Under the pieces are notes generated by a model. That model saw only the letters and a program-made list of their open reading frames with translations, was not told the origin of the DNA and did no database searches. Both the position numbers and the translations under genes were made by a program. A stretch of DNA of 64,000 nucleotides from a virus. Taxonomy: Duplodnaviria > Caudoviricetes. Positions 3,258 to 32,078 of the stretch are shown one piece after another. The stretch is taken from positions 4,599 to 68,598 of the IMG/VR virus record IMGVR_UViG_3300043630_000001; one strand, 5' to 3'. The stretch's first letter is position 1. Every line of letters begins with the position of its first letter.

Positions 3258-4787
3258 ATGAAATTCTCCTGGAATCCGCTCAGTATCTTTGCCAAGGCTG
3301 CTACGCCAGCAGCCGGAGGCAGTCTGGCTCCTGTATCTAAAGGGCCAGAACTCCCCTTGGTCGTTACTCCTAAAGTCAGCAACAAGCAGATTACTATCCC
3401 TGCTTATGTCCCGACTGCGGCGTTTGTGTCTTCCCAGCTACAACGGAAAGACATCAACGCGTCCACTACAGACATCGCGGCAACTTCCAGGTTGGGCAAT
3501 ACAACGCCGGCTGTCATCAGGCAGCTGAGCCGGCTGCATCCTGACTTATCTGCGGCAGTGAATGCTTACCTGCGCACAGGCATACCTGAAAAGTATATTC
3601 TTAAGGCTAAGAATCCAGATGGCAGCCTTAACCGGGAGGCTACGCAGTTAGCGCAAACGTTCGCACGACGCTTAGACACCATGCCAGATTACGCCAGCGG
3701 ATACTCTCCGATAGGTTCAATCCGGTCAACAGCAGAGGCGCTGGCAAAGGAAGGCTTGATTGAGGGCGCCTTAGCCATGGAGCTTGTCCTGGATAAGTTC
3801 TATATGCCTTACAAGTTTCAGCCAGTAGCGGTTTCACAGCTTATCTGGCGTGAGGACAAGGACGTCCAGCACGTTTTCCCTCAACAGCTTATCAGCGGGC
3901 AGTATATCGATCTCGATCAGCCCACCTTCTTTTACACCTCGATTGACCAAGACTTATTGTCGGTCTACTCCCAAAGTCCGCTGGAAGGTTCCGTCCAGCC
4001 TGTGCTGGCGTCAGCTGACTTCATCCAGGACATGCGCCGCATTATCAAGCGCGCGGTCTTCCCTCGCATGGACGTGGTGATTGATGAAGCTAAGCTGAAG
4101 GAACGTATCCCTCCAGAGATCGAAAACGATCCTACAAAGCTGGATGCGTTCCTCAACGCAACAATTTCGGCCATCCAGACCATGGTAACTTCCATCGGCC
4201 CAGAAGATGCCTTGGTGCATTTCGATTTCATTACGGTTACCCAAGTAGCAGAGACAGCCGGCGACAACGCCCAGAGCTTTGAGACTGTCAAGGATATCTA
4301 CGACGAGAAAGTTTCCACCGGCGCCAAGGTGCTACCCTCAGTGCTTGGTCACGGTTCAGGGTCGCAAAACGTGGCCTCGACGGAGACCTTGGTGTTCATG
4401 CTCTCTGCCAATGGCTTAATTCGCCTGAAGCTACAAGAGATGTTCAGCAAGGCGTTTACTCTCTCAGCCCGGCTGTTTGGGTATGACGTCACAGTAGAGT
4501 TCCTTTACCAGGACATCAACCTGCGGCCTGAGTTGGAGCTGGAAAGCTTCCGGGCCATGCGGCAGTCGCGCATGCTGGAGCAATTAAGCCTTGGCTTTTT
4601 AACCGATGATGAGGCAGCCCTGGAGTTGACCGGCAACCTTACACCGGTGGGCTTCAAGCCGCTGTCGGGGACGCAGTTCTTTAAGGGGGCTCCGCCAGTC
4701 AATGAGAATCCATTAGGTAATCAACAGGGGGCGCTCAATCAGAGTCTCAAGCCCAGCACACCGACGAAGAAAAAGGGGAAGCAATAA
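3258..4787 (+). CDS. Portal protein
   Basis: 509 aa, between terminase and head protease. Size and synteny fit a portal. Confidence 0.75.
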   Translation: MKFSWNPLSIFAKAATPAAGGSLAPVSKGPELPLVVTPKVSNKQITIPAYVPTAAFVSSQLQRKDINASTTDIAATSRLGNTTPAVIRQLSRLHPDLSAAVNAYLRTGIPEKYILKAKNPDGSLNREATQLAQTFARRLDTMPDYASGYSPIGSIRSTAEALAKEGLIEGALAMELVLDKFYMPYKFQPVAVSQLIWREDKDVQHVFPQQLISGQYIDLDQPTFFYTSIDQDLLSVYSQSPLEGSVQPVLASADFIQDMRRIIKRAVFPRMDVVIDEAKLKERIPPEIENDPTKLDAFLNATISAIQTMVTSIGPEDALVHFDFITVTQVAETAGDNAQSFETVKDIYDEKVSTGAKVLPSVLGHGSGSQNVASTETLVFMLSANGLIRLKLQEMFSKAFTLSARLFGYDVTVEFLYQDINLRPELELESFRAMRQSRMLEQLSLGFLTDDEAALELTGNLTPVGFKPLSGTQFFKGAPPVNENPLGNQQGALNQSLKPSTPTKKKGKQ

Positions 4788-5587
4788 TGGCTCACGAATT
4801 TTGGTACGGTGACGCAGAGTCGCACGCAGCAGTGCTGGAGGCTCGGACCCAGGTAGGCAAGTTGATGGCACAGATATCCGCGGATGACGGTAATCTGCCG
4901 GATCTTCCTCCGCTGTGGGCGCGAGAAGGTGACATTGCTGTAGTCAATGTTTTCGGTTCGCTGGTGCCAGGTACTGCCGGATACTGGCGGCTGTACGGCG
5001 TGACCGGCTATTCTGACATCACTGACGCAGTGATTGAGGCGGTTTCTGACGACACGATTAAAGCTGTGGCCCTTCGTGTGGAATCGCCAGGCGGGAGCAC
5101 GACAAACCTGGCAGAAACTGCGGACCTGCTGGTGAAGCTGGGCAAAATCAAACCTCTGTATGCCCACAGCGAAACTTGCATGGCTTCTGCTGGCTACTGG
5201 ATAGCATCAGCGGCCTCCACGGTAAGCCTTAACCCTAGCGCACAGGCAGGCAGTATTGGTTGTGTAGCTATTCTCACATCGTTTGCCCGTGCATACACGG
5301 AAATGGGCATAGACCGAGAGGTAGTGCGCAGCGGGCAGTACAAAGCACTTGGGTCATCCGTGGAGCTGATCTCCCAGCTTGCCAAGGACGAGTTACAGTC
5401 TAAGGTAGATGATTTGGCTGCCATGTTTGATGCTTATGTAGGCAAACGCCGTGGGCGCACAGCGTCGCAGGTTAACACCGACATGGGCCAGGGCAGGATG
5501 TTTCTGGGCAAGCGTGCCCTGGACGCAGGCTTGGTAGATAAGTTGATGACTTATGACCAAATTATGCGATTTATCGAAAAAAGTTGA
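4787..5587 (+). CDS. Prohead protease, peptidase S49 (SppA/ClpP-like)
   Basis: VESPGGS, MASAGYWIASAA (catalytic Ser), AGSIG, GQYKALG (Lys), GQGRMFLG. Confidence 0.9.
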   Translation: MAHEFWYGDAESHAAVLEARTQVGKLMAQISADDGNLPDLPPLWAREGDIAVVNVFGSLVPGTAGYWRLYGVTGYSDITDAVIEAVSDDTIKAVALRVESPGGSTTNLAETADLLVKLGKIKPLYAHSETCMASAGYWIASAASTVSLNPSAQAGSIGCVAILTSFARAYTEMGIDREVVRSGQYKALGSSVELISQLAKDELQSKVDDLAAMFDAYVGKRRGRTASQVNTDMGQGRMFLGKRALDAGLVDKLMTYDQIMRFIEKS

Positions 5588-25866: not shown

Positions 25867-26373
25867 ATGCAATACGCAAATATCAGAGATAAGTTTAAGT
25901 CGGGAGACTTGATCGCCTTGACCCATAAAAAGTGGGGGAGCTTTTACGATTTGCAGGTTCAGGCAGTGCGCGCCGGGACGCAGTCCGAGTACTCTCATGT
26001 GGCTGGGCTAATTGTTTTTGCCGGCAGGGTATTTGTTGTGGAGTCGGTTGAGCCAGTAATCCGCCTGGTGCCTCTGTCAAACCTTGCTGAGGAGGGGTTC
26101 TACTGGCTGCCTATGAATTACGAGATGTCGCCAGAAGAGCTGGAGTTCAGCATGGCAAAAGTGGGGAAAGGAAGCTACTCCAAGTGGCAAGCAATCCTTG
26201 CTCAGCTACGCAAACTAAAGATAGGTGCTGATGACAACTGGGAGTGTGCAGAGTTCATGATTGTGGCCAAGCGGTTGTCTGGCATTGACCTGGGCGACAA
26301 AGCTACACCTTCGGCAGTTATTGAGCATGTGCTGCAAACTTACGACACTTCAGTGCATTTTGTAAAAGGTTGA
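25867..26373 (+). CDS. Permuted papain-like NlpC/P60 amidase (YiiX/YaeF-like)
   Basis: KSGDLI...YSHVA (His) near the N-terminus and WECAEF (Cys) near the C-terminus, the circularly permuted arrangement. Confidence 0.7.
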   Translation: MQYANIRDKFKSGDLIALTHKKWGSFYDLQVQAVRAGTQSEYSHVAGLIVFAGRVFVVESVEPVIRLVPLSNLAEEGFYWLPMNYEMSPEELEFSMAKVGKGSYSKWQAILAQLRKLKIGADDNWECAEFMIVAKRLSGIDLGDKATPSAVIEHVLQTYDTSVHFVKG

Positions 26374-26398
26374 ATTTCTCGCTATTAAGCTATAGAAT
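26370..26398 (+). promoter_or_regulatory. Sigma70-like promoter for the lysis region, TTGAAT-N17-TAGAAT
   Basis: Exact 17-nt spacer. Small inverted repeat TGTCA-N4-TGACA at 26405-26418 just downstream. Confidence 0.55.
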
Positions 26399-26436
26399 GG
26401 CACCTGTCAACACTGACAATTTTACCGGAGATTATC

Positions 26437-26574
26437 ATGTCAAAACTTTACGTAACCGGCACAGGTGGTGGTACACGCCCTCCTCCAGAGCCAGAACCAA
26501 CACCTGATGGCCGCAGCGCCCCCAAGAAGTCAAAAGCCAAAAAACCTTCGCCAAAGAAACCAGGTAAAAAATGA
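26437..26574 (+). CDS. 45-aa Gly/Pro/Lys-rich peptide (absent from the ORF track)
   Basis: MSKLYVTGTGGGTRPPPEPEPTPDGRSAPKKSKAKKPSPKKPGKK. SD GGAG upstream; its TGA overlaps the next ATG (ATGA). Confidence 0.7.
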   Translation: MSKLYVTGTGGGTRPPPEPEPTPDGRSAPKKSKAKKPSPKKPGKK

Positions 26575-27008
26575 AACGTACATGGGTCACTCGTTTAGCA
26601 ATAGCCTGCATGTTCTGGCTGGCAGCAAATCTTTTTGATTTGCTGATCACGCCTGGCAAGAGTTGGCCCATGTACTATCTGGCTGCGTTGTTTTTTGACG
26701 CTACGCTCGTATTGTGCCTTTTCAAATTTGGCGAAAATTCTTTGGTTAATGATTTACAAAACATTAACTATACGGCTATAGTTGTACATGCCGTAGGTTT
26801 TGTGATGTACATGGATTATTTTCCACCCTACAGTTACAACGCTATGCTGTACACCTTAATCGGTGCTCAATGGCTTCGGCTGCTCTGGGTGGATCCAAAT
26901 GACCGAATTACTGCTGACTATTTTAGGTGTGATATGGTCCTTAATAGTTATTGTTTTTGTTGGCAACGAACTTCGCCAACGAAGAGTGAAGCATCTCAAG
27001 AAGGCTAA
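26571..27008 (+). CDS. Four-TM inner-membrane protein of unknown function
   Basis: Four hydrophobic segments in aa ~9-107, with intramembrane polar residues (D, N, H, Q). Confidence 0.7.
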   Translation: MKRTWVTRLAIACMFWLAANLFDLLITPGKSWPMYYLAALFFDATLVLCLFKFGENSLVNDLQNINYTAIVVHAVGFVMYMDYFPPYSYNAMLYTLIGAQWLRLLWVDPNDRITADYFRCDMVLNSYCFCWQRTSPTKSEASQEG

Positions 27009-27024
27009 AAATGAGTGCCCATGA
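26899..27024 (+). CDS. 41-aa single-TM peptide overlapping the 3' end of the 4-TM gene
   Basis: MTELLLTILGVIWSLIVIVFVGNELRQRRVKHLKKAKNECP: one TM and a basic tail. Weak SD GGTGGA. Confidence 0.5.
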   Translation: MTELLLTILGVIWSLIVIVFVGNELRQRRVKHLKKAKNECP

Positions 27025-27256
27025 GCTGATAGAACAAGCGGTCAACAACCCTAAGGTAGCCCTGGCCACCCCGGTAACGACCACGCTGATAGGCATCGCT
27101 ACCGTACAGAGTTGGCTCACGCTCCTGTCTATGGTGATCGGTGTGGCCATATCACTTGTTCTACTGAACAACCACCTTATCAAACGTCGTATCTTGATCC
27201 GCCAGGAAGAACTTCTGAACAAGACCGGCAACCTCAGAGGAGACCTAGAGACATGA
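27011..27256 (+). CDS. Putative holin
   Basis: 81 aa with 1-2 TMs and a charged C-terminus. ATGA-coupled to the endolysin. Confidence 0.6.
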   Translation: MSAHELIEQAVNNPKVALATPVTTTLIGIATVQSWLTLLSMVIGVAISLVLLNNHLIKRRILIRQEELLNKTGNLRGDLET

Positions 27257-27735
27257 ACAACTTTGAATTATGCATTGCCCCGCTACTAGCAAATGAAGGT
27301 GGCATCACAAACCATCCGCTGGACAAGGGCAAGCTGACCAAGTATGGTATCAGCCAGCGCAGTTACCCAAATCTGGATATCGCAGCGCTGACTATCGAAC
27401 AGGCCAAAGCGCTGTACAAGCGCGACTTCTGGGATCCGTACCAACTGGACAAATTCGCAGCAGTCGTGGCGTTTGAGTTCTTCGACTGTGCAGTGAACTG
27501 CGGCACAGGCACAGCGGCACGTCTGTTCCAGCGATCCCTTGGCGTAGCAGAAGATGGGATTATCGGTCCGATCACTCTGAGCAAGGCTCTGGCAGCCAAC
27601 CCTGATAAGCTGGCAAAGACCATGGCAGCGCACCGCATCAAGTTCTACACCTCGCTGTCCCAGTTTGACACGTTTGGTAAGGGCTGGGTCAATCGCATGG
27701 CCAACAACATGCTTTGGGAGACTCAAAATGTCTAA
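27253..27735 (+). CDS. Endolysin, glycoside hydrolase family 108 with PG-binding_3 domain
   Basis: NEGGITNHPLDKGKLTKYGIS, FDCAVNCG, DGIIGPITL, FGKGWVNR. True start at ATG 27253. Confidence 0.9.
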   Translation: MNNFELCIAPLLANEGGITNHPLDKGKLTKYGISQRSYPNLDIAALTIEQAKALYKRDFWDPYQLDKFAAVVAFEFFDCAVNCGTGTAARLFQRSLGVAEDGIIGPITLSKALAANPDKLAKTMAAHRIKFYTSLSQFDTFGKGWVNRMANNMLWETQNV

Positions 27736-27919
27736 CCAGGTTATCTCATTCAGCCGAAACATGGACGGTGATTGCCTGGTCCTGCTAGACGGCAAGGTTC
27801 ACGCCATGGCAAAAGATTGCGCTGGCTGGAATGACGCCATCAAGCTGGAAATATACAAGGCGGCAATGAGCCTGCAAATGGGTGCAACTGACGAAGAAAC
27901 GGAAAACAATCATGCTTAA
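27728..27919 (+). CDS. Hypothetical protein (63 aa) in the lysis region
   Basis: ATG 27728 with SD GGAG. Overlaps both neighbours in a coupled pattern. Confidence 0.45.
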   Translation: MSNQVISFSRNMDGDCLVLLDGKVHAMAKDCAGWNDAIKLEIYKAAMSLQMGATDEETENNHA

Positions 27920-28397
27920 TTTTCTTGGTGGACTGGTAACCAAATTCTTACCAGAGAGGTACCAAAAGTATTACGATGCCTACACTAAAGGGCATGCTGT
28001 TTATGACGCTGTCAAGACAAAAAATCGGCAAAACTTTGTAAATGCCTTAGGGGTACTACTCTGTTTTGGTGCTGGTGTATGGAGGACGTATTATGGCCAC
28101 AGTTTTCCGCTGTCGGACGCTGACCTTATTCAGCTTGCTGGTTCTGCTGGCGTTGCTTTCGGGGTGTACAACGTTAAAGCAACTACTACGAGTACCGACA
28201 AGATCGGACTGCCCCCGCGTACTGGAGGCAACGCTCCAATCGAAGATCACAGCTTCAACGCCCCAGTGCCAGAGATACCTGAACTACCAGCACAGGCCGA
28301 TGTGCAGCCTGAGCATAACTCCACTGCGCGATTCGCAGGCGAACACGATGACTCAGACAACCCCCTCGCAGGACTTGATACAACATATAGAGGGTAG
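27912..28397 (+). CDS. Two-TM holin/spanin-like membrane protein
   Basis: Hydrophobic segments FVNALGVLLCFGAGVW and LIQLAGSAGVAFGVYNV. The acidic/Pro-rich tail overlaps a nested lipoprotein gene. Confidence 0.55.
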   Translation: MLNFLGGLVTKFLPERYQKYYDAYTKGHAVYDAVKTKNRQNFVNALGVLLCFGAGVWRTYYGHSFPLSDADLIQLAGSAGVAFGVYNVKATTTSTDKIGLPPRTGGNAPIEDHSFNAPVPEIPELPAQADVQPEHNSTARFAGEHDDSDNPLAGLDTTYRG

Positions 28398-28461
28398 TGT
28401 ATCCGAGGCCGTGCATTCAGTGGATGGTCTCAAACTGCAGTACCAATGCAAGTCTTACTAA
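28093..28461 (+). CDS. Lipoprotein (o-spanin-like), nested in the +1 frame of 27912-28397
   Basis: SD GGAGG at 28081-28085, ATG 28093. Signal peptide with lipobox LLSG|C (Cys codon 28165-28167) and four further Cys. Confidence 0.7.
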   Translation: MATVFRCRTLTLFSLLVLLALLSGCTTLKQLLRVPTRSDCPRVLEATLQSKITASTPQCQRYLNYQHRPMCSLSITPLRDSQANTMTQTTPSQDLIQHIEGSVSEAVHSVDGLKLQYQCKSY

Positions 28462-28473
28462 AAAGGAACTATC

Positions 28474-28719
28474 ATGCTACAAATCGCTTCTGCCATTCTT
28501 GCTATTATCAACTTTTTGTCACAGAACAAAGAACAGGTTAAGCAGCTGATTCTCAGTATCGAAAACCTGGTACCGGACGCACCAGGTAGTGAGAAAGCCG
28601 CACAGGTTCGGAACTTCATTTCTGCCAGCCTGAACATCGAAGACCAGTTTGAGAAGGCGTGGGCTTTAACCGCCCCCATCTTTAACCATCTGGTAGCAGC
28701 CACAAAATCTCCAAAATAA
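28474..28719 (+). CDS. Small amphipathic protein, last gene of the lysis region
   Basis: SD AAGGA. N-terminal hydrophobic helix. Confidence 0.6.
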   Translation: MLQIASAILAIINFLSQNKEQVKQLILSIENLVPDAPGSEKAAQVRNFISASLNIEDQFEKAWALTAPIFNHLVAATKSPK

Positions 28720-28957: not shown

Positions 28958-31048
28958 CTATTCTCCTAAACGAATCATGTTATCAGCGTAAGCATCACAC
29001 TGGTCGCTGTGAGTTACCATCAACACTTGAGGGAATCCGCACTTAGCAATCATGCCCAGCATAGCAGCTTCACGTCGGTCATCGCAAGCTGCTGCCATTT
29101 CGTCCAAGATCATGAAATTGGAATTAGGCAAGAAGGTTTTGGTCAGCGCTGTCCGAATAGCCAAGCCGAGAGCGTCCTCTGCTGACCCGGACAGACCCTT
29201 GGCAGACTTGCCGTTCACTTTGAAGCCGTCAGCATCTTTTGTCACAGTAGACTGGAAACCGCGAATGTCTGAGAAGTAAGTCGTGACCGCAGCTAAAACC
29301 ATACCCCAAATCTTGTCAGTGATTTGCGGCCTGGCTTCACGCACCTTTTTCATGAGCGCGTTATTGGATTGTTGCTCCAGTAAGTCGGCCTTAGCTGACT
29401 GCAGGTCAACCAGAACCTTGGCCGCCTGGTCAGCGCGCTGCTGGTTGCGCGAGTCGATTAATGCCTTAGCGTGAGCCAGTGCTGTGTGTTCAGCCTGCAG
29501 CTTGGACAAGGCAGCGTCAGCTATCTGCTGCGTTTCCACCAAAGCTTCTTGTTCAACAATCTTTTGCTGCAGCTTCTGTTCGTCGATGCCTCGCATGGCT
29601 TCTTCTGCCGCTACGATCTGCTGTGACAGTTTGATCACCTCCGCTCCGGCGTTGGCTACCTTCACGTCATGCTGAAGGTGAGCCTGGCGCAACGCCTTCA
29701 AGTCGGCTAAGTCTTTACTGACGTCTCTGCCTATTTCAGGCAACTCGCTTACCCACGTTGCCCGGTGAGGCACGAAACTGTAGTCCAGCAAGATGTTGCT
29801 GCCGAAGCCGTTGTGCGTAACTGACATCACAAAATGACTTCTCAGCACGCTCTCAAGTTCTTTAAGTGTGCTCTGCAGAGACTTGACCGCCTCGCTACTA
29901 GCCGACCCCTCAAGTTTCGCAGAAGATATCTTGTTGGCCAATTCCGAGTTATGCGTGGCCACCTCTGGTACGTTCTGCAGGTCTTTGCCACAAAACGCAC
30001 AGGACGTTTCTTTGATCAACCGGCCTTCCAGCGTATTGACCAGCAAGGTGGAAGTCTGGTGGGTCTCCTGGGCCTTGAGCCAGGCGTCTCTGGTGGAAGC
30101 AATCTCGGCGTTCAAGGCTTCCAGGCTACCTTCCCACTCCATAGCCGGCGCAGAAATTTTACCGAAAGCCGTGTGCTCAGCATGCAGACGCTCAGCAGAA
30201 GCTAAGTCTGCAACCAAACTTTGCAGCTTGCCTATGTCCGCCTCACTGGGGCATGCGCTTTCCAGCACAGCTTCTGCTATCAGCTTCTTCTCTGCCAGGC
30301 TGCTCAACCACACCTCATGCTTCGACTTGTGGTTTGCCAGCGTTTGGAGCTTTGAGCGGGCTTCAGCTAAACCTGCCATGTCTATTTTCGCTTTGCTGAC
30401 CTCAAGCATGGCCTGCTTTTCTGCGACTTCTTCTGCTTTCCTACTCAGGCTCTCTGAAACTTCCAGTGTGCTTTCCATCTCCGGATCGGCGCAGGCTGCT
30501 GCCAAGGCGTCTATCCGGCCCTCCAGGCTCTTTGTGTTCCCGGATGGTAGTTCGGTATCGATCAAGTCGATGATGTCGTCCAGCAGGCTAAAGTCCGCCA
30601 AGGTTTCGATCAACTGGCCGACAGCAGTAGGCCCGTCGCCCAGTACACCGCTGAGCTCTTTCTGGCGAGCAATCATCAGTTTGTTGGCCAGCTTCGCGCT
30701 GGTACCGAAAAGGTTCTCAATAAACTTGGTGACCTCCGTCTGTCCGGTGACACGTTCTTTGCCAAAGGTCAGCTCAGCACCGGACTTGCCACGGTACACA
30801 CTGTAGTTAACGCCTCCGAACTCGAAGTCAAGTTCCACTTTCAGCTTAGCCACCGGTACGTCATAACTGACGATTTCTTCTAAGGGCTGAGACAAGGCAG
30901 ACGACCCGAACAGAGCGTAACTAATTGCCAAAAGCACACCGCTCTTTCCGGCCTCATTGGCCCCACGTATGGCGTTCAGGCCAGGTGTGAAATTAATTTC
31001 CAGATCAGTATGCTGACGGAAACACGTCAGTTTAAGTTTTTGCAGCAT
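28958..31048 (-). CDS. sbcC: SbcC/Rad50-like SMC ATPase
   Basis: Walker A GANEAGKS, coiled coils with zinc hook CAFC, signature LSGSAE, Walker B ILDE, H-loop VTH. Confidence 0.9.
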   Translation of the reverse strand: MLQKLKLTCFRQHTDLEINFTPGLNAIRGANEAGKSGVLLAISYALFGSSALSQPLEEIVSYDVPVAKLKVELDFEFGGVNYSVYRGKSGAELTFGKERVTGQTEVTKFIENLFGTSAKLANKLMIARQKELSGVLGDGPTAVGQLIETLADFSLLDDIIDLIDTELPSGNTKSLEGRIDALAAACADPEMESTLEVSESLSRKAEEVAEKQAMLEVSKAKIDMAGLAEARSKLQTLANHKSKHEVWLSSLAEKKLIAEAVLESACPSEADIGKLQSLVADLASAERLHAEHTAFGKISAPAMEWEGSLEALNAEIASTRDAWLKAQETHQTSTLLVNTLEGRLIKETSCAFCGKDLQNVPEVATHNSELANKISSAKLEGSASSEAVKSLQSTLKELESVLRSHFVMSVTHNGFGSNILLDYSFVPHRATWVSELPEIGRDVSKDLADLKALRQAHLQHDVKVANAGAEVIKLSQQIVAAEEAMRGIDEQKLQQKIVEQEALVETQQIADAALSKLQAEHTALAHAKALIDSRNQQRADQAAKVLVDLQSAKADLLEQQSNNALMKKVREARPQITDKIWGMVLAAVTTYFSDIRGFQSTVTKDADGFKVNGKSAKGLSGSAEDALGLAIRTALTKTFLPNSNFMILDEMAAACDDRREAAMLGMIAKCGFPQVLMVTHSDQCDAYADNMIRLGE

Positions 31049-32078
31049 TGCGTTTCTCCAGTAGCTTTACAACTTTAACGCCTTCGGCTGGCGTCAGAAT
31101 TTCAAGCAAAGCATTCAATACATTAAAACTGCTGATCTGCTCGTGACTCAAGTTCAACTCTTCTGAGTCATCCTGGCCATCGATCTTGACGGCAGAAGAT
31201 ATAATTAAAGCTTTAGACTTTTGCCGGAACTGTGCCAGAGTGGTGATAACCTGCGCAGCTTCGGCAGTTGTCGCTGTACCCACTACACGAACAAACCTTG
31301 CCCCAGTGTCCTGCAATTCCTGCCAAGGTAGATCTATGTAGTCACCTTCAGCTTTCCAGGTCTCTATGAACTCAATACCTGCATCAGTGATCTTCAGCAT
31401 CCGCTTGGTAACATTACCCAAGCAGTCACTTATTGAAGAAGGCCGGGCATTGCCTACAACAAGAACCTTGCCGCTCATCGCTGTGCGTCCGATGTGCTCA
31501 TGACTAAAGACAGCCGTTTCAACAGGCATCTCAGCCACCTGAGCTTCAGATATAGATAATGAGTGGTCAGACTGCTCAGCAAACACATTCGCAAAATTAG
31601 CGTGGAAGAAAGCATACCTGCACTTTGGTATTTTCTTTAGCTCAAGTTCGAGGGTATCTTGGTTGCTGACATGAGGCACTACATAGCAACCATCACCTAT
31701 ATTGGTGCCTTCCACAATGTGTGTAACCTGCAAGGGGTAAGCATCTGACAGCAACTTGGCCAGAAATTGGTAGCTGGAAAAGTTTGTCGAATTTTTACTG
31801 AGATCATGGTTGCCGTTTGGTAATATTAATCGTTTACCGTTGCGTTCCAGCCACGCAGATAGCATCTGAAAAACCTGAGCAAGGTCTGACATAGGTATGC
31901 TGGCTGTGTCAAACAAGTCACCATTTAGGAGCAAGTCACCGTCAACAGCAATGTTACATAGCATGTCTTTGAATTCCTGTAGAAGTTCTTGGCGTAGCTG
32001 GTAGCTGGTGGCAGGGGTGCAACCAGCTACCCTATTCACGCCCAGGTGCCAGTCTGAAGTTTTGTATAGCGGAGTCAT
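31032..32078 (-). CDS. sbcD: SbcD/Mre11-like metallophosphoesterase nuclease
   Basis: SDWHLG, NGDLFD, GNHD, FHAN and SHEH motifs. Confidence 0.9.
   Translation of the reverse strand: MTPLYKTSDWHLGVNRVAGCTPATSYQLRQELLQEFKDMLCNIAVDGDLLLNGDLFDTASIPMSDLAQVFQMLSAWLERNGKRLILPNGNHDLSKNSTNFSSYQFLAKLLSDAYPLQVTHIVEGTNIGDGCYVVPHVSNQDTLELELKKIPKCRYAFFHANFANVFAEQSDHSLSISEAQVAEMPVETAVFSHEHIGRTAMSGKVLVVGNARPSSISDCLGNVTKRMLKITDAGIEFIETWKAEGDYIDLPWQELQDTGARFVRVVGTATTAEAAQVITTLAQFRQKSKALIISSAVKIDGQDDSEELNLSHEQISSFNVLNALLEILTPAEGVKVVKLLEKRNAAKT

Follow-up and report, generated by a model that had tools for sequence, protein, structure and literature searches.

What do the four small genes standing directly ahead of the endolysin gene do for the phage considered here? 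They lie in the window, a 64-kb stretch inside a 68.6-kb IMG/VR phage contig, and coordinates are those of the window unless a locus is named. The four genes, together called the module, are open reading frame 1 (ORF1), encoding a micropeptide; ORF2, encoding a protein with four transmembrane (TM) helices (the 4-TM protein); ORF3, an overprinted gene for a protein with one TM segment; and ORF4, encoding a holin-like protein. The module is probably a device, so far undescribed, that times host lysis, and its reading as a multi-component holin/antiholin timing system is given a probability of about 0.6. An earlier note on this DNA had suggested that the first three ORFs serve in lysis control or in signalling. 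These ORFs were found exactly where that note had placed them, with the ATGA coupling, the GGAG ribosome-binding sequence and the overlap at the 3' end of ORF2 that it described. The features are as follows.

26370-26398, + strand: promoter-like site TTGAAT-N17-TAGAAT (9/12 matches) at the head of the module
26427-26430, + strand: Shine-Dalgarno (SD) sequence GGAG of ORF1, 6 nt 5' of the ATG; predicted ribosome entry site for ORF1 and the coupled ORF2
26437-26574, + strand: ORF1, non-membrane micropeptide of 45 amino acids (aa); identified by ORF reading, conserved in relatives, with the proportion of synonymous differences (pS) above that of non-synonymous differences (pN)
26571-27008, + strand: ORF2, 4-TM protein of 145 aa, PHROG 15451; hidden Markov model (HMM) match, homologue alignment and AlphaFold2 (AF2) model
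26899-27024, + strand: ORF3, overprinted gene of 41 aa, one TM segment and a basic C-terminal tail; +1 frame relative to ORF2, spanning the ORF2/ORF4 junction
27011-27256, + strand: ORF4, holin-like protein of 81 aa; phrog_1350 holin match (E 0.004), collinear alignment and AF2 model
27253-27735, + strand: endolysin with GH108 and PG_binding_3 domains (PF05838, E 3.9e-21; PF09374, E 1.7e-10; phrog_315 endolysin, E 2.8e-47)

The ATG of ORF2 overlaps the stop codon of ORF1 as ATGA, and the ORF4 stop overlaps the endolysin start. ORF3 shares 110 nt with ORF2 and 14 nt with ORF4, which leaves it almost no sequence of its own. The endolysin has neither an N-terminal signal nor a signal-anchor-release (SAR) segment.

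Recurrence of the module beside endolysin genes

An exhaustive HMMER/phmmer search with ORF2 yielded 92 cluster representatives for the 4-TM protein; almost all are 130 to 160 aa long. The DNA around 13 distinct metagenomic relatives and four named phages located by tblastn (Edwardsiella phage PVN06, Klebsiella phage KpV52, Pectobacterium phage PEAT2 and Vibrio phage 367.14) was examined and, with the window, 17 loci were tabulated; a 547-bp contig carrying the first two genes alone (L008) was omitted. The module is thus carried by metagenomic phages, Klebsiella Jedunavirus, Edwardsiella Yokohamavirus, Pectobacterium PEAT2 (Peatvirus) and a Vibrio phage. Wherever the flanking sequence suffices, the order is constant (micropeptide, 4-TM protein, +1-frame TM ORF, holin-like gene), although identity of the 4-TM protein drops to about 25%.

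A micro-ORF of 25 to 53 aa precedes every homologous 4-TM gene examined, with its stop codon at the 4-TM start or within 14 nt of it. The earlier note had held that its proposal would fail if homologous 4-TM genes lacked an upstream peptide ORF; no such gene occurred in the loci examined, and the N-terminal Gly-Gly...Arg/Pro motif of the peptide is kept while its tail varies. ORF3 counterparts (40 to 110 aa, with one strong TM segment and a basic tail) begin with ATG in the +1 frame in 17/17 loci, overlapping 68 to 125 nt of the 4-TM tail and 14 to 242 nt of the next gene. ORF4 counterparts (66 to 93 aa) are collinear with ORF4 of the window (alignment A6). The L001 sequence stops within ORF4, and the sole exception is L012, which has a longer ORF3 and no separate fourth gene. 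In L012 and L013 (885-1168), ORF3 is 64 to 67 aa long with two hydrophobic stretches, and the GH19 endolysin gene is not preceded by a separately called holin-like gene of 80 aa; this arrangement may be a fused or rearranged form of genes 3 and 4.

Genes gp49-51 of KpV52 and the corresponding genes of PVN06 show the order and architecture seen in the window. Jedunavirus gp50, gp51 and gp49 and their Yokohamavirus counterparts belong to PHROGs 15451, 13707, 32836 and 36947, all listed as 'unknown function'; in the named phages PHROG 13707 is the fourth gene and PHROGs 32836 and 36947 are the micropeptides. Against phrog_15451, the KpV52 and PVN06 homologues score E 2e-69 and 4e-62, and ORF2 of the window scores 1.1e-5 over residues 14-116. 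ORF1 and ORF4 of the window do not reach the HMMs of the named-phage micropeptides or fourth gene.

Other searches added little. In the phage collection, blastn with the DNA of the region and tblastn with ORF4 gave no matches, and tblastn with ORF2 gave one weak match (PVN06, E 0.9), which proved to be a true distant relative. Searching with the family alignment found no loci in metagenome contigs or genome contigs and only three in viral contigs. A reverse search with the back-translated peptide motif was uninformative, returning the known L004 contig and GC-rich chance matches that have no 4-TM gene.

Among phages of the window clade the endolysin gene comes immediately after the module, and the endolysins span four enzyme families: GH108, PF00959 (T4-type) lysozyme, VanY/M15 and GH19. 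In Jedunavirus, Yokohamavirus and Peatvirus the module and the endolysin gene are divergent neighbours; the PVN06 enzyme carries a SAR endolysin annotation, and the endolysin operons of KpV52 and PVN06 contain annotated spanin genes. Five kinds of endolysin adjoin the module, across unrelated siphovirus and myovirus backbones. A place kept beside interchangeable endolysins on unrelated backbones resembles the behaviour of a holin cassette. ORF1 to ORF4 are inherited as a unit that travels with the lysis genes, and its recurrence in 17 loci upholds the earlier view of a conserved unit at the head of these genes.

ORF4 has the features of a holin, being small, with at least one TM domain and a highly charged C-terminal tail. 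An Ala/Thr/Gly/Val-rich segment and a strong TM segment at about residues 36-53 are followed by the Lys/Arg/Glu-rich tail, and the AF2 model is one long helix. It also adjoins the endolysin gene, as holin genes do, and holds the same position in L006, L009, L011 and L023. In addition to its weak match to phrog_1350, its named-phage counterparts weakly match phrog_1350, phrog_20 and phrog_4237 (E 4e-4 to 5e-3). The KpV52 RefSeq record contains no holin annotation, and in the Jedunavirus vB_KleM_KB2 no holin gene could be found (PMC10276810).

As the module proteins have no homology to characterized proteins, the functional argument rests on context. The position beside endolysin genes, the absence of any other annotated holin, the holin features of ORF4 and the likeness of ORF3 to a TM protein of minimal size that bears a charged tail together lead to the holin/antiholin timing reading. 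Lysis control is thus the best of the roles suggested by the earlier note, from position and co-inheritance. Several points weigh on the other side. No module protein significantly matches a characterized holin or antiholin (best E 4e-4 to 8e-3), and hhalign of the ORF2 alignment (A1) against the P2 antiholin LysA gave a probability of 0.1%. The conserved polar and charged residues of the 4-TM protein (R8, D61, Y89 and R103) could just as well point to a different activity in the membrane. SAR and soluble endolysins alike would have to be served by the module, which would place demands on the size of the holes, and the split of roles among the four proteins is one that we infer.

The 4-TM protein, the overprinted gene and genes downstream

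The four TM helices proposed for ORF2 by the earlier note are borne out by AF2. From a 40-sequence alignment, four long helices were modelled (residues 2-25, 33-53, 57-81 and 87-105; mean pLDDT, the per-residue confidence score, 86), with the last 30 residues at low confidence. Residues R8, D61, G76, Y89 and R103 are conserved (alignment A1), inside the motifs D-L-Q-x-I-N, Y-x-P-P-x-x-Y-N and Q-W-x-R-L. The conserved core runs from residue 1 to about 116; the tails of homologues differ, giving total lengths of 130 to 146 aa.

Pfam, NCBIfam and PADLOC gave no usable match for any of the four module proteins. For the ORF2 model, Foldseek against the PDB found nothing at E 1e-3 or better, a sequence profile search of the PDB found nothing, and VIA-align returned generic helical bundles alone (Z below 10). 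Matches in BFVD were uncharacterized members of the phage family only, and those in the ESM Atlas were viral hypothetical clusters only. Two proteins of about 410 aa from the homologue search (P0077 and P0088) have an N-terminal domain like the 4-TM family, followed by more TM segments and a helical cytoplasmic domain; no Pfam domain was found in either, and they may be fused forms of the family.

The overlap between ORF2 and ORF3 was analysed by comparing the three reading frames over identical nucleotides. In the ORF3 frame pS is 0.56 to 0.77 against a pN of 0.11 to 0.32, resembling the true frame of non-overlapped ORF2 (0.68 against 0.25). In the ORF2 frame pS is 0.18 to 0.48 and pN 0.23 to 0.42, as in off-frame controls, and the differences are concentrated at ORF3 third positions. 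Judged by these substitutions, ORF3 is the selected frame in the overlap and a genuine overprinted gene. The C-terminal 30 or so residues of ORF2 are therefore an unselected run-on, in agreement with the HMM match ending at residue 116, the variable tail length and the low model confidence.

Other identities for ORF3 were considered. That it is the frameshifted C-terminus of ORF2 was rejected because in every locus it starts at an ATG of its own. It also differs from an Rz1-type spanin, since it starts directly with the TM segment and has no lipobox or lipoprotein signal. Chance ORFs were ruled out for both ORF1 and ORF3 by the substitution patterns and by recurrence in 17 loci.

The +1-frame TM ORF is unannotated in all four named-phage records (PVN06, KpV52, PEAT2 and Vibrio phage 367.14, the last of which is wholly unannotated). 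The PEAT2 record also lacks a coding sequence for the micropeptide and for the 93-aa holin-like protein. Three of these ORFs are placed as follows.

KpV52 (NC_041900): L016 2838-3011, about 31296-31469 of the record; unannotated +1-frame TM ORF
PVN06 (MZ220765): L003 3278-3433; unannotated +1-frame TM ORF
PEAT2 (NC_044940): L017 2838-3011; unannotated +1-frame TM ORF

The endolysin gene is separated from the membrane gene that follows it by a small ORF of up to 84 aa (27665-27919), which probably begins at an internal ATG and has no family match. A membrane ORF 3' of the endolysin (27882-28461) encodes 171 aa and contains a nested +1-frame ORF bearing the lipobox L-L-S-G-C. The nested pair is spanin-like but unusual in form, and neither ORF matches spanins of PHROG, Pfam or NCBIfam. 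Past the lysis genes, the window shares synteny with L006 and L007: an 81-aa ORF (in L006) is followed by a convergent gene for an SMC/AAA_23-type ATPase of about 696 aa. These lie at 28474-28719 and 28958-31048 (minus strand) in the window and at 4673-4918 and from 5110 onward in L006. From this synteny these metagenomic phages belong to the group of the window.

Translation of the module and rival explanations

The earlier note had given the module its own promoter and a small inverted repeat. The promoter-like site exists but is not above chance on its own, such sites being no rarer than expected here (5 found against 2.9 ± 1.8 in shuffles). What does recur, in 5 of 6 close relatives, is a -10-like element (TAGAAT or TAAAAT) 35 to 50 nt 5' of ORF1, and in L006 inspection by eye shows a G+C hairpin and T run, resembling a terminator, just before it. 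From the recurring element and this hairpin, a transcription unit of its own appears to begin with the module. The inverted repeat (TGTCA-N4-TGACA, 26405-26418) is present, but was given no weight because its arms are 5 bp long and it is not visible by eye in relatives.

An SD-like site precedes ORF1 (by 4 to 12 nt) in 15/15 loci, ORF4 in 9/15 and ORF3 in 6/15, but ORF2 in only 3/15. The rarity of an ORF2 SD, with ATGA-type junctions, means that the 4-TM protein is predicted to be translated by ribosomes just off ORF1 (translational coupling by termination-reinitiation), so that its dose would be tied to translation of ORF1.

These same SD counts and overlaps favour a different view of ORF1, that it is mainly a cis-acting leader. 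It would bring ribosomes to the SD-less 4-TM gene, its Pro and Lys runs would throttle the supply of ribosomes and so hold a toxic membrane protein at a low, tuned dose, and the free peptide would have no job. Poly-proline needs elongation factor P for efficient translation, and most window-clade peptides contain Pro-Pro-Pro or a longer run. In L005 (2895-2999) and L021 (1382-1480) the micro-ORF is dominated by a run of seven to eight Pro, the most obvious feature that the two share and one that fits a throttling role; the L005 peptide is acidic and has no Gly-Gly motif.

The composition of ORF1 tells against a leader of this kind. Its N-terminal motif V-T-G-x-G-G-G-x-R-P-P-P leads into a middle part that is acidic and Pro-rich and then a basic tail rich in Lys and Pro, and Gly-Gly, then Pro-rich, then Lys-rich is the usual build across loci. 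The motif is shared by the window-clade peptides (alignment A4), where G11 is invariant and G10, R14, P15 and P17 are at least 90% conserved. Among relatives pS of ORF1 is 0.6 to 0.97 (near saturation) against a pN of 0.22 to 0.46; these proportions show the micropeptide to be under selection at the protein level, and the residues preceding the Pro run (L, V, T, G-G-G and R) are conserved through synonymous changes. Peptides of the Jedunavirus, Yokohamavirus and Vibrio clade have A-G-G and Arg/Lys motifs instead, in three tandem copies in PVN06; those of Jedunavirus and Yokohamavirus have no Pro run, yet keep Gly-Gly and the basic composition. The basic tail is kept for 15 to 20 codons, beyond the needs of a reinitiation site. 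Conservation is not decisive, as a nascent-chain arrest peptide would conserve residues too. A mainly cis-acting ORF1 is considered somewhat unlikely; it would account for ORF1 alone, and the other genes of the module could still serve in lysis. Action of ORF1 as a trans-acting cytoplasmic peptide and its action as a cis-acting leader do not conflict.

The identity of ORF1 as a disruptin, a cationic lysis peptide that takes the place of spanins, is not supported: a disruptin would be expected in phages without spanins, and KpV52 and PVN06 carry the module as well as annotated spanins.

Less probable still is that the module is a late membrane function apart from hole formation, such as superinfection exclusion (the alternative named by the earlier note), a block to DNA entry or envelope remodelling, and merely lies beside the lysis genes. 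Small membrane proteins act in such roles in T4 (Imm and Sp), the 4-TM family has no homology to holins, and conserved polar residues are present in the 4-TM protein. However, the overlap of the ORF4 stop with the endolysin start chains the module to the endolysin in the window clade, the adjacency holds for all five endolysin kinds over the unrelated backbones, PADLOC gave no match, and if the module is set aside no holin candidate is annotated in these phages.

It is very improbable that ORF1 is a signalling or exported peptide that is processed, exported or sensed by the 4-TM protein to make lysis depend on phage density (as in arbitrium) or on superinfection: the peptide gene is always paired with a membrane-protein gene and its tail differs between phages, but the variable part is low-complexity Lys/Pro, none of the 17 peptides has a signal peptide or hydrophobic stretch (maximum 17-residue hydropathy at most 0.03, and -0.5 for ORF1 of the window), the 4-TM protein has no Pfam or NCBIfam family (peptidase, transporter or other) and a plain four-helix bundle as its fold, no processing enzyme is evident and no receptor-type gene lies inside the module (AimR-like genes were not searched for elsewhere in the genome), and the motif is conserved among phages with only 25 to 50% 4-TM identity, where a communication code would be expected to diversify and where the same motif in distant phages cannot give phage-specific signals. 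The arbitrium-like secreted signal of the earlier note is accordingly not retained.

Proposed mechanism and known lysis systems

In the holin/antiholin timing reading, the module would be the apparatus that decides when the inner membrane is breached, letting the endolysin reach the wall. Ribosomes would load at the strong SD of ORF1 and ORF2 would follow by termination-reinitiation; ORF3 starts at its internal +1-frame ATG and ends within ORF4. ORF4, possibly with ORF3, would be the hole-former, and the 4-TM protein would set the timing as a membrane partner or antiholin. The product of ORF1 would stay in the cytoplasm, where its conserved N-terminal motif may dock on the 4-TM protein at a conserved cytoplasmic face formed by R8, the D-L-Q-x-I-N loop and R103. 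Its polycationic Pro/Lys tail would add positive charge at the inner face and could keep the complex inactive while the membrane is energized.

P2 LysA, which acts as antiholin with holin Y and endolysin K, is a precedent for ORF2: it is a separate-gene antiholin with four TM domains that affects lysis timing (PMC3091744), and ORF2 is likewise a four-TM protein of about 140 aa with its own gene in the lysis cassette. The two have no detectable sequence relation. LysA lies after the endolysin gene, in contrast to the module, and has no coupled upstream micropeptide or overprinted TM gene.

Multi-component timing is also found in T4, where holin T works with the antiholins RI (periplasmic) and RIII (cytoplasmic), and the small, soluble RIII is reported to act on the membrane holin from the cytoplasm (PMC8385771). 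RIII, however, is an 82-aa folded protein rather than a Pro/Lys-rich micropeptide, and the proteins are unrelated. The timing genes of T4 are dispersed and not chained, and its lysis inhibition follows superinfection.

The dual starts of lambda S107/S105 and of phage 21 S71/S68 show how an extra cytoplasmic positive charge keeps a protein inactive in the energized membrane. The ORF1 peptide and the ORF3 tail, both strongly basic and predicted to be cytoplasmic, might act in parallel fashion. In lambda and 21, however, an alternative start lengthens the polypeptide itself by one or two charged residues, whereas here the charge would reside on separate gene products.

Overprinting in a lysis cassette has a precedent in the Rz/Rz1 spanin genes of embedded or overlapped architecture, in which a second gene in the +1 frame lies over another, and both are reported to be real and the arrangement to be conserved (PMC6139136). 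Unlike Rz1, ORF3 carries no lipoprotein signal, precedes the endolysin gene and straddles the tail of ORF2 and the head of ORF4; in addition, the ORF2 tail that it overlaps is not itself under selection.

The architecture is thus unusual for a multi-gene holin/antiholin cassette, with an SD-bearing micropeptide gene driving an SD-less membrane gene and a third gene overprinted across the junction of two others. No description of the module was found in the literature searched.

A more specific proposal is tentative, and the odds are judged to be against it: the module may be a widespread but so far unrecognized holin system with four components, found in phages of Enterobacterales, Vibrio and soil bacteria, in which the coupled polycationic micropeptide, the overprinted TM protein and the 4-TM protein form a charge-based, membrane-potential-sensitive timer for a small holin, and it may in addition supply Klebsiella Jedunaviruses with their 'missing holin'.

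Holins act as the clock of a phage infection, yet for many phages with sequenced genomes none has been identified. The +1 overprinted TM ORF adds a gene missing from the named-phage records examined, and Klebsiella Jedunaviruses, which are under development for therapy, gain a concrete holin candidate. If the Pro/Lys peptide does regulate hole formation in trans, it would represent an antiholin component of a new type.

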